From positions 32,001 to 96,000 of IMG/VR virus record IMGVR_UViG_3300017766_003100: a stretch of 64,000 bases of DNA. One strand, given 5' to 3'. The notes beneath the pieces were generated by a model. That model did no database searches and was not told where the DNA came from. It saw only the letters and a program-made list of their open reading frames with translations. The number at the start of each line of letters is the position of its first letter. The stretch's first letter is position 1. Below, one piece after another: positions 44,359 to 45,908 of the stretch. This DNA is from a virus. Its lineage: Duplodnaviria; Caudoviricetes. Made by a program: the position numbers and the translations under genes.

Positions 44359-44386
44359 AAAAGGGTGAGAAATCACCCTTTTTTTT
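44357..44386. terminator. Bidirectional intrinsic terminator
   Basis: AAAAAAGGGTGA-GAAA-TCACCCTTTTTTTT between convergent genes. Confidence 0.9.
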
Positions 44387-45908
44387 ATGATTTTATAAAT
44401 CGATATGTTGTATAATTTTTATCTGTCTCAACAACAATATTATAAACTCCAACACCAAAATTATCTAAACTTAACATTTCTATATTAGAAATCAAAAATA
44501 TATTAGGTCTTGAATAAACTAACTGACCCATATTATTATAAATTTTTAAATTAAAAGTTTCACCCTTAACACTAAAATTTTCTAATATCAAATTATTATC
44601 TTTTGTGTAAATAAGAACATCATTTAATTTTGGGTCATTTATTGCAACCGCGGATATGTCAGAATATAACATTTGACCATCTTCAAACCATTTTAATCTG
44701 TAATAAGTAAATCCATTTGGTTTGGGAAAATTGTCATTAAAATCATAATATCTTTTTCCTAAGTTTGTGACATTAACAATACCAATAGAATCAAAATTAA
44801 TTCCATCTAATGATTTTTCAATAATAAACCCATCAATATAGTCATCAACAATAACATCCCAAGTTAAATAAACATCTTTATAATCTTTTCTATATTCGGC
44901 ATTAAATGATAATAATTCAAGGGGAAATAATACACAATCCAATGTTGCAGTACCACCAAATAATAATTGATAACCATTGCCAGTATTAGATAACCACTCA
45001 TCTACTACCAAATAATAAGTTTGACCTGCAGTTACATTCATTTGAGCTAAAAACCCATCTCCTGTAACACTTTCAACATTATCAACTGCTGTTGTATTTA
45101 ATCCAGTATTTCCAGTATTGCCTGAGTCTGAACATCTTAATGGAGTTCCCAAAGTACCACAAGTTACATTAGGACCATATATACTAAAGTCATAATCATC
45201 GGTATTTGTTTGTGGGTCAATTGTAAATCTAAGAGTACCACTAGATAATATTTCAAATTGATACCAATTAGAGTGGTTTTCACCACCAGCAGGACAAGTA
45301 GTACCAACACATCCTTCAGCTGTAAGTCCAGGTCCTCTTGCATTTACATTGGTTGTTATGTCTGAACAAATAAAAGTTGCTCTTGAGCAATCATTATTAT
45401 CTGTTATATTTGGGCCATTAGTAGGTGTTGCACAAGGGACACAAGACAATGAAGCACTCCATCCTGCGTCAGTTATTGACCCATCAGAAGTGAATCTAAA
45501 AGTTAAACATCCACTAGGATTGTTAGCTGTATATGTAAATGGTACGGCAGGTGCTCCTGAAATTCTACCATTTGGTACTGTGGCTGGAGGTGTTGTAAAT
45601 ACTGGTGAATTTTGGGTTGCACCATTACCTATGGTTAAAAAATCAAAACCAGTTTCAGTTCTAAATGAATTAAATGTCACCCTAACACAATTACCAGGGA
45701 TTGTTGGACAAAATACACGATAAAGTCCACCAAGAATACTATTTGAGTAGTTACCTCCAGCACCACCATTATCAAGATAAGTTCCACTACAAGTAGATAC
45801 TAAACAATTGGTAACTCTTTCTCCTTGAATACCTGTTGTACCATGTAGATAGGTTTGTGACCATAATAGGGAGGGAATAAAAATAAGTAGTAGTAAAATG
45901 TTTTTCAT
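44385..45908 (-). CDS. Secreted CUB-domain protein with Ig-like domain and T9SS type-A-like C-terminal sorting domain
   Basis: Signal peptide ending LWS|Q; CUB-like VTFNSFRTETGFDFL...FRFTSDGS...GWSA; PLELLSF...W..F.IEKS.DG.NF...YYRLK; CTD-like KIYNNMGQLV...GVYNIVV...RFIK. Confidence 0.8.
   Translation of the reverse strand: MKNILLLLIFIPSLLWSQTYLHGTTGIQGERVTNCLVSTCSGTYLDNGGAGGNYSNSILGGLYRVFCPTIPGNCVRVTFNSFRTETGFDFLTIGNGATQNSPVFTTPPATVPNGRISGAPAVPFTYTANNPSGCLTFRFTSDGSITDAGWSASLSCVPCATPTNGPNITDNNDCSRATFICSDITTNVNARGPGLTAEGCVGTTCPAGGENHSNWYQFEILSSGTLRFTIDPQTNTDDYDFSIYGPNVTCGTLGTPLRCSDSGNTGNTGLNTTAVDNVESVTGDGFLAQMNVTAGQTYYLVVDEWLSNTGNGYQLLFGGTATLDCVLFPLELLSFNAEYRKDYKDVYLTWDVIVDDYIDGFIIEKSLDGINFDSIGIVNVTNLGKRYYDFNDNFPKPNGFTYYRLKWFEDGQMLYSDISAVAINDPKLNDVLIYTKDNNLILENFSVKGETFNLKIYNNMGQLVYSRPNIFLISNIEMLSLDNFGVGVYNIVVETDKNYTTYRFIKS

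Follow-up and report, generated by a model that had tools for sequence, protein, structure and literature searches.

A phage-encoded protein with type IX secretion cargo architecture in a giant T4-like freshwater phage

The predicted cargo gene and its domains

The DNA analysed here is a stretch of 64,000 nucleotides (hereafter the window), positions 32,001 to 96,000 of the IMG/VR virus record IMGVR_UViG_3300017766_003100. Its minus strand carries a gene for a protein, P0001, with the architecture of a type A cargo of a type IX secretion system (T9SS). The features of the gene are listed in Table 1. An initial annotation had proposed a phage-encoded T9SS cargo at this place without giving a strand; the interval coincides exactly with an open reading frame (ORF) that is uninterrupted, with neither frameshift nor internal stop when the minus strand is read.

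Table 1. Features of the predicted cargo gene and its flanks, in window coordinates.
Feature	Coordinates	Strand	Basis or remark
Phage-encoded T9SS type A cargo gene (predicted), 507-aa P0001	44385..45908, including stop codon	-	Complete ORF
Sec/signal peptidase I signal peptide, residues 1-17, MKNILLLLIFIPSLLWS	45858..45908	-	Hydrophobicity scan; predicted cut before Gln18
CUB domain, residues 18-160	45429..45857	-	Fold match, Z 12.9
PPC / collagenase collagen-binding-like (GBD_T9SS_assoc-like) domain, residues 161-326	44931..45428	-	Fold match over residues 167-322
Fn3 / Ig-like spacer domain, residues 327-427	44628..44930	-	Fn3 folds, Z 9.6-10.8 (2ic2_B, 1wf5, 4n68), VIA-align
Type A T9SS C-terminal sorting domain, residues 428-507	44388..44627	-	TIGR04183 and fold
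Bidirectional terminator-like hairpin	44357..44384		12-pair stem, T runs on both strands
5' spacer of the cargo gene	45909..46025	-	T4-late-type TATAAATA at 46018-46025 (-), 110 nt before the ATG

When the 55 ORFs of the window were scanned for hydrophobicity, just two signal-peptide-like N-termini were found. One is that of P0001, MKNILLLLIFIPSLLWS followed by QT, whose best 10-residue hydropathy window reaches 2.91. In 26 of 26 aligned relatives, Gln follows a small residue at the place where cleavage is predicted. Signal peptidase I substrates of Bacteroidetes carry Gln at position +1, a regularity known as the Q-rule (PMC5837995), and the Q-rule has previously been observed for Porphyromonas phage proteins (PMC10367356). 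The other N-terminus belongs to a 129-aa ORF at window positions 20-409 (plus strand) and reads MKKLFLLVCLVFSFTLRA followed by Q, so that Gln stands at +1 there too. A Pfam search found no match in this ORF, and it has no C-terminal sorting domain (CTD). The phage may export its product as well.

An AlphaFold model of P0001, built on 26 relatives, reached a predicted local distance difference test (pLDDT) score of 77.5. A Foldseek search with the whole model returned multi-domain look-alikes only (neuropilin), and separate domains had to be recovered with VIA-align, by comparison against 48,161 PDB representatives. Four domains were thus resolved: CUB, PPC/collagen-binding-like, Fn3 and T9SS CTD. 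The initial annotation had named a signal peptide, a CUB domain, an Ig-like domain and a CTD; all four are recovered, the first by the hydrophobicity scan and the others by fold (Z 12.9, about 10 and 10.2, respectively), and what it had missed is the PPC-like domain between CUB and Fn3.

The closest fold to the CUB domain is PCPE-1 (6fzw_D; Z 12.9, root-mean-square deviation (rmsd) 2.2, 112 residues aligned), followed by neuropilin-1 (Z 12.6), cubilin (12.5) and TSG-6 (12.4), with rmsd values of 2.0-2.7 over 112-115 residues. A Pfam search of P0001 itself for CUB (PF00431) gave no match at E <= 1; the same family matches 10 of 26 family members, with a best E of 4.4e-6. The Pfam matches found in homologues of about 630 aa fall in an extra N-terminal CUB (residues 27-130 in the homologue P0022), and were not used for the CUB of P0001. 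A profile of the N-terminal domain family matches the cubilin CUB with E 4e-10. In that alignment the invariant F..F..E...DYL and SD of the family stand opposite acidic positions of animal CUB domains, and residues E85, D89 and D142 of P0001 may thus occupy the acidic Ca2+-site positions of the latter.

For the PPC-like domain, the best fold matches are collagen-binding domains of ColG/ColH (ColG 5iku_A, Z 11.3; 1nqd_A, 10.7) and a PPC domain (PF04151; 5sv5_A, 10.5). The Pfam model PF23759 (GBD_T9SS_assoc) scores 16 bits on P0001, below its cut-off of 27, and Atlas feature matches to PF23759/PPC clusters (0.85-0.87) are leads only. The motifs CPAGGENH.NWY, DDYDF and VVDEW and several cysteines are invariant in the aligned relatives. 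A resemblance of the N-terminal region to SprB-like gliding proteins, put forward in the initial annotation, survives in a narrower form: the middle domain is like that found at the start of SprB/CHU_C-type gliding proteins, a likeness (Atlas structure, TM-score about 0.5) that is a lead only. No catalytic domain was found in P0001 by Pfam, by VIA-align fold comparison or by domain-profile search. Given this absence and the CUB, PPC and Fn3 folds of the model, P0001 is read as a non-enzymatic modular binding protein.

The check suggested in the initial annotation, the TIGR04183 hidden Markov model (HMM), matches residues 440-506 of P0001 with a marginal 23.9 bits (cut-off 23). Higher scores were obtained for orthologues (26.4, 40.3 and 45.3 bits, the latter two in related phage records), and PF18962 (Por_Secre_tail) matches 26 of 26 aligned relatives with E <= 0.01. 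In a scan of the window with a custom CTD HMM, the cargo gene was the sole match. The motifs that the initial annotation had read in the CTD are all present (KIYNNMGQLVYS, GVGVYNIVVE and a terminal YRFIKS), and G487, Y489 and the near-terminal K506 are retained. According to Lauber et al. 2024 (PMC10994853), the motifs of type A CTDs merely specify the fold, and the near-terminal Lys is the single conserved contact, made to PorV.

Structural comparison points in the same direction as the HMM. In the whole model, residues 428-507 match the NucA CTD as solved in the translocon (8glk_D) with the Z of 10.2 given above. When residues 420-507 were folded from the single sequence, with no alignment, a 7-strand sandwich was obtained (pLDDT 77.6), which matches the CTDs of NucA (Z 9.5, rmsd 1.9, 73 of 75 residues), RemA (9.3), RemZ (8.7), mirolase (8.6) and RgpB (7.2); with FspA and PorZ included, the range is Z 7.2-9.5 at rmsd values of about 2 Å. 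The highest-scoring matches of the CTD model are DUF3244 beta-sandwiches (Z 11.8). A profile of the whole family matches two CTDs solved in the Flavobacterium johnsoniae translocon, with E 2e-5 (NucA, 8glk_D) and 1.7e-4. The CTD of P0001 thus shares with the CTDs of that translocon (NucA 8glk, RemA 8gl6, RemZ 8gl8, FspA 8glj; PMC10994853) a beta-sandwich of 7 strands and about 75 residues that forms the extreme C-terminus, and a near-terminal Lys, with matches of Z 7.9-9.5 and rmsd of about 2 Å over 72-75 residues. Export through the T9SS of a Bacteroidota host would be the most economical reading of an architecture that combines a Sec signal peptide with a type A CTD.

Phage location, family and allele turnover

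Among the products coded in the window are the N-terminus of a tail sheath protein, a family B DNA polymerase of phage type, an SNF2 helicase and a head-tail (neck) adaptor, which in a relative is named T4 gp13-like; tail-fibre-like Gly_rich_2 proteins and many orphan ORFs are also present. A protein identical to P0001 is found on 9 contigs; at least 5 of these come each from a different public sample and have the same neighbours where their length allows. Orthologues of the cargo gene lie on three IMG/VR contigs in synteny with the window, and a syntenic orthologue occupies the same place in a related phage (L006/L011). The phage genes, the identical loci across samples and the IMG/VR orthologues exclude, for practical purposes, that the locus is a host fragment or a chimera. 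The carrier is a giant T4-like freshwater phage, and the cargo gene has the attributes of a phage accessory (moron-type) gene: phage genes lie on both sides of it, and it recurs in related phages. When GenBank phages were searched by near-identity and by protein, two weak partial matches in huge uncultured phages were obtained, and otherwise no relative of the locus.

More than 650 homologues of P0001 were found. In a bacterial survey of one genome per species (GTDB, 185,579 species genomes), 236 species-genome stretches code for a relative, almost all of them in Crocinitomicaceae (Fluviicola, Taishania, Lishizhenia), other Flavobacteriales and Chitinophagales. The best bacterial copy is at most about 51% identical to P0001. 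Bacterial copies are chromosomal; dnaA lies less than 5 kb away in 18 of 80 loci, and in two genomes the gene sits between Impact_N/peptidase M42 genes and dnaA.

The closest counterpart of P0001 is a chromosomal protein of Crocinitomicaceae and other Flavobacteriales annotated as 'T9SS type A sorting domain-containing protein' (for example, P0069 in the Fluviicola metagenome-assembled genome CP170456.1, and the copy of Taishania pollutisoli, L023). Both have the four-domain architecture at about 510 aa, the invariant cysteines, CPAGGENH, DDYDF, VVDEW and a signal peptide with Gln at +1, and full-length identity is 45-51%. They differ in that the bacterial copies belong to the core chromosome, often beside dnaA, whereas those of phages make up a clade of their own, set apart by fixed changes (HGTTGIQGERV in phage versus HPTTGIQGEYVG in host copies) and a 3-residue insertion. 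The host of the phage is probably a Crocinitomicaceae/Fluviicola-like member of the Bacteroidota.

A side observation concerns the position of the host gene. In Crocinitomicaceae-type genomes (L094/L095; 16-18 of 80 bacterial loci) the homologue is found in fixed synteny, from Impact_N/peptidase M42 to dnaA, and this position adjoins the likely replication origin.

A maximum-likelihood tree of the conserved core (FastTree, LG+gamma, 153 sequences) provides the phylogeny against host homologues that the initial annotation had suggested as a check. The phage group P0001-P0015, whose members are 58-98% identical, is monophyletic with Shimodaira-Hasegawa (SH) support of 0.963. The sister clade (SH 0.815) consists of bacterial fusions that carry a Gly_rich_2-PKD module at the N-terminus, and one of them, in a Saprospiraceae locus (L013; 4110-6551), adjoins PGK and GAPDH. 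P0017 and P0032 branch next (SH 0.956), the latter on a phage-like contig, and the whole group is nested inside bacterial diversity. All members of P0001-P0015 with readable context lie in phage-like DNA, in at least five distinct neighbourhoods. The monophyly of the phage clade, the maximum bacterial identity of about 51% and the purifying selection described below therefore point to an old phage-resident lineage that originated in the host family. Hence the idea of a captured host gene, raised in the initial annotation, holds as regards a deep host-family origin; on this phylogeny the gene is seen as an old capture and a phage-adapted lineage, not as a recent pick-up.

Several T9SS cargos appear to be coded by some relatives, as judged from a related phage-like contig (L093) with three Por_Secre_tail ORFs (1815-3149, 10001-11596 and 11626-12834). 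One of these ORFs has a weak match to a lamin-tail domain, and another carries the Fn3-CTD half common to the cargo family.

The cargo gene is under purifying selection. Between P0001 and a 98% variant (L010) we counted 38 synonymous and 10 non-synonymous changes, which gives a ratio of non-synonymous to synonymous rates (dN/dS) of 0.07; this value and the intact ORF speak against the decaying gene that the initial annotation had considered. A different picture emerged from the comparison with L006. There the cargo gene is only 66% identical (dS 0.91, dN 0.26, dN/dS 0.28), while the flanking genes show 94-99% protein identity (dS 0.08-0.44, dN/dS 0.04-0.12) and the gp13-like gene, four genes further, 86% (dS 0.66, dN/dS 0.13). 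The cargo gene is thus the most divergent gene of the backbone conserved between the window and L006. Versus L010 the pattern reverses: across 44385-48785 of the window, the cargo protein is 98% identical, the adjacent RegB-like gene (46229-46813) 36%, and the DUF285 gene is a patchy mosaic. The contrast between L006 and L010 indicates that the locus is a hot spot of recombination, where close phages swap their cargo alleles; it lies between the glycosyltransferase block and the DNA polymerase gene.

Divergence from L006 is unevenly distributed along P0001, with 85% identity in the CUB domain, 84% in the PPC-like domain, 46% in Fn3 and 20% in the CTD. Since it is the binding domains that are conserved, this divergence looks more like the result of loose constraint on spacer and sorting signal than like diversifying selection on a recognition surface.

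A predicted role at the host cell surface, and its alternatives

Our best explanation of these observations, to which we assign a probability of about 0.6, is that P0001 is a T9SS-exported phage binding protein through which the infected cell's surface is changed or kept up. The initial annotation had suggested receptor masking, aggregation or motility as forms of such a change. Export, its timing and the biological role are what we infer. During infection, the precursor would cross the inner membrane by Sec, and signal peptidase I would cut it before Gln18. The host SprA/PorV translocon would then recognise the folded protein through its type A CTD; the protein would cross the outer membrane, the CTD would be removed, and release or attachment to the cell surface would follow. 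With its Ca2+-type CUB, PPC/collagen-binding-like domain and Fn3 spacer, the phage protein would supplement or replace a surface-binding function of the host, and thereby remodel the surface, while fast-changing cargo alleles would pass between related phages. Supplementing or replacing a host surface function seems the most likely effect because the likely hosts carry a gene of this family on the chromosome, often next to dnaA.

Phage-encoded T9SS cargo as a concept is already published, a point absent from the initial annotation. Bellas et al. 2020 (Nat Commun, PMC7468147) described it in Cryophage and termed it a unique occurrence. In crAss-like phages of the gut, ORFs with a sorting domain have been found beside ORFs with BACON repeats (de Jonge et al. 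2019, Viruses, PMC6949934). As in the present case, the Cryophage proteins carry type A sorting domains, belong to an uncultured Bacteroidota phage and were proposed to be exported by the host T9SS, and their genes are among those that vary between phage variants ('flexible' genes). The Cryophage cargos are, however, enzymes and a PA14 protein (endoglucanase, GH39), whereas P0001 combines CUB, PPC and Fn3 without a catalytic domain, is coded by a T4-like lake phage and belongs with a clear family of orthologues in likely hosts. The crAss-like ORFs share the sorting domain and the Bacteroidota host range of their phages; they differ in belonging to a gut lineage with BACON passengers, and that paper reports no host-gene phylogeny or selection analysis. 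What the present case adds is the clear orthologous host family, the clean phage clade, a natural CTD that lacks the PNP motif and is predicted to fold, and the allele turnover.

The presence of T9SS cargo genes in phages implies that infected cells are given an altered surface by the viruses of Bacteroidota, a group dominant in lakes, oceans and guts. The case described here would allow CTD-driven T9SS export of a phage protein, and the gain to the phage, to be tested directly. Several features make it suitable for such tests: the passenger is a compact binding protein that has a clear orthologue in the likely hosts, phage and host lineages are cleanly separated, natural alleles occur with and without PNP, and, within a conserved backbone, the gene is a hot spot of allele swapping.

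Certain observations weigh against T9SS export of P0001 or its use in infection, and several of them concern the CTD. PF18962 scores 17.7 bits on P0001, below its gathering score of 27, and a phmmer search of PDB sequences with the CTD of P0001 alone gave no match, and thus no solved CTD; the lack of any sequence match on its own sets it apart from the F. johnsoniae translocon CTDs, as does the lack of PNP. As the initial annotation had pointed out, the usual YPNP is missing: IYTKDNN replaces the (Y/Q/H)PNP(T/F) of relatives, with a 3-residue deletion. Among 17 members of the phage clade and nearest relatives, this loss is confined to the P0001 lineage, and it could impair the efficiency of export. 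Expression is a further difficulty. The T4-late-type TATAAATA is not enriched in the window (13 copies found versus 18.6 expected) and the spacer upstream of the cargo gene is not conserved in relatives, and we therefore claim no promoter for the gene. A 265-nt contig from one freshwater metatranscriptome, 100% identical to a segment inside the cargo gene, is a weak hint of expression; it may be carried-over DNA in the RNA library. Finally, it is not obvious what a phage with a lytic T4-like cycle would gain from exporting a protein.

As regards the CTD, three observations argue that it still works:
(i). The domain is predicted to fold as a CTD from its single sequence.
(ii). The near-terminal K506 has been kept.
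(iii). The dN/dS of 0.07 was measured against L010, a variant that already lacks PNP; the two CTD changes between L010 and P0001 are both conservative.
For these reasons, we regard the CTD of P0001 as maintained, not decaying.

Two more specific roles have to be weighed, and we consider them about equally plausible, each of them unlikely taken singly. The first is superinfection exclusion or receptor masking. In this explanation, the exported protein, on the infected cell and on debris, blocks or competes for the receptor of the same or rival phages, possibly the host's own homologue; it would be a specific version of surface remodelling. Phage T5 offers an analogue, as its lipoprotein Llp masks FhuA. 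Like P0001 in our proposal, Llp is an exported protein made by a lytic phage that alters the surface of the infected cell; it differs in that it is a small lipoprotein which Lol, and not the T9SS, sorts, and in having no homology to P0001. A predicted exported binding protein without a catalytic domain would suit such a role, and so would the most divergent gene of a conserved backbone, whose alleles are shuffled among related phages in the way that an arms race would lead one to expect. The same variability was seen in the cargo genes of Cryophage by Bellas et al., who proposed roles in superinfection and competition (PMC7468147). The binding domains, however, are conserved: across the phage clade the CUB domain is 79-90% and the PPC-like domain 62-84% identical to P0001, with dN/dS values of 0.11-0.15 for CUB/PPC versus the syntenic orthologue. 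Divergence is found mostly in the Fn3 spacer and the CTD, the latter to be cleaved off once export is complete, and this fits loose constraint better than diversifying selection on a recognition surface.

The second role is that of an auxiliary gene, whose product would keep up a host surface function (adhesion to particles or algae, substrate capture) after shutdown of host transcription. The psbA gene of cyanophages provides a parallel. Wide conservation of the host homologue as a chromosomal gene in fixed synteny beside dnaA speaks for this role, as do the old monophyletic phage clade, its purifying selection and the fact that the binding domains are the best conserved part of the protein. 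Functional equivalence may fail, however, given the changes fixed between phage and host copies and the 3-residue insertion, and the gene is present on only three IMG/VR contigs.

In a more speculative and decidedly improbable version, the phage copy, exported through the host's T9SS, might stand in, in diverged form, for a conserved surface adhesin of the host that either serves these phages as receptor or shields it, as part of a T9SS-dependent system for superinfection exclusion or debris masking. If this were true, the system would be the first T9SS-dependent one of its kind, and the rapid exchange of alleles between near-identical backbones would reflect competition among co-occurring phages.

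Much less credit can be given to a virion or decoration protein, that is, to Ig-like, CUB and beta-sandwich modules displayed on the capsid or a fibre, with a 'CTD' that is no more than a beta-sandwich at the end of the chain. Phage particles commonly bear Ig-like domains, the cargo gene lies near tail-fibre-like Gly_rich_2 and virion genes, and the CTD model is indeed closest to the DUF3244 sandwiches. Against this possibility stands the cleavable Sec signal peptide, whose Gln at +1 is conserved through the phage clade, for T4-type virions are assembled in the cytoplasm. In addition, all bacterial relatives are chromosomal T9SS cargos, and the gene runs on the strand opposite to that of the neighbouring structural and glycosyltransferase genes, with a terminator-like hairpin of its own. 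The least credible explanation is a non-functional passenger (a decaying recent host capture) or a host-phage misassembly: a CTD degenerate by sequence, without PNP, and the lack of a PHROGs family for P0001 would fit it, but the identical protein and neighbours in assemblies of five public samples, the orthologue at the same place in a related phage, the undamaged reading frame, a dN/dS of 0.07 since the split from a variant in which PNP was already gone, and the lack of any bacterial copy above about 51% identity all contradict it.

Expression signals and neighbouring genes

The hairpin listed in Table 1 sits between the stops of the cargo gene and of a convergent HtrL-like glycosyltransferase gene. 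On the other side, the 320-nt spacer holds a divergent pair of T4-late-type TATAAATA sequences, at 45969-45976 (plus strand) and 46018-46025 (minus strand), the latter facing the cargo gene. Additional copies of TATAAATA are found 22-34 nt ahead of the ATGs at 46860, 46813 and 63398. Matches to sigma-70-like promoters are not above shuffle expectation.

Two further observations concern other genes of the window. At 36706-39347 on the plus strand, 5 kb from the cargo gene, stand three tail-fibre-like paralogues with Gly_rich_2 (PF21722), arranged in tandem; it is this domain that, together with PKD, is joined to the N-terminus of cargo-family members in Saprospiraceae-type bacteria, the sister clade described above. 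A 909-aa protein, coded at 56519-59248 on the minus strand, begins with a complete Fe/Mn superoxide dismutase (first ~220 residues); its long C-terminal part has no family match, and the fusion protein is found with 76% identity in the related phage L006.

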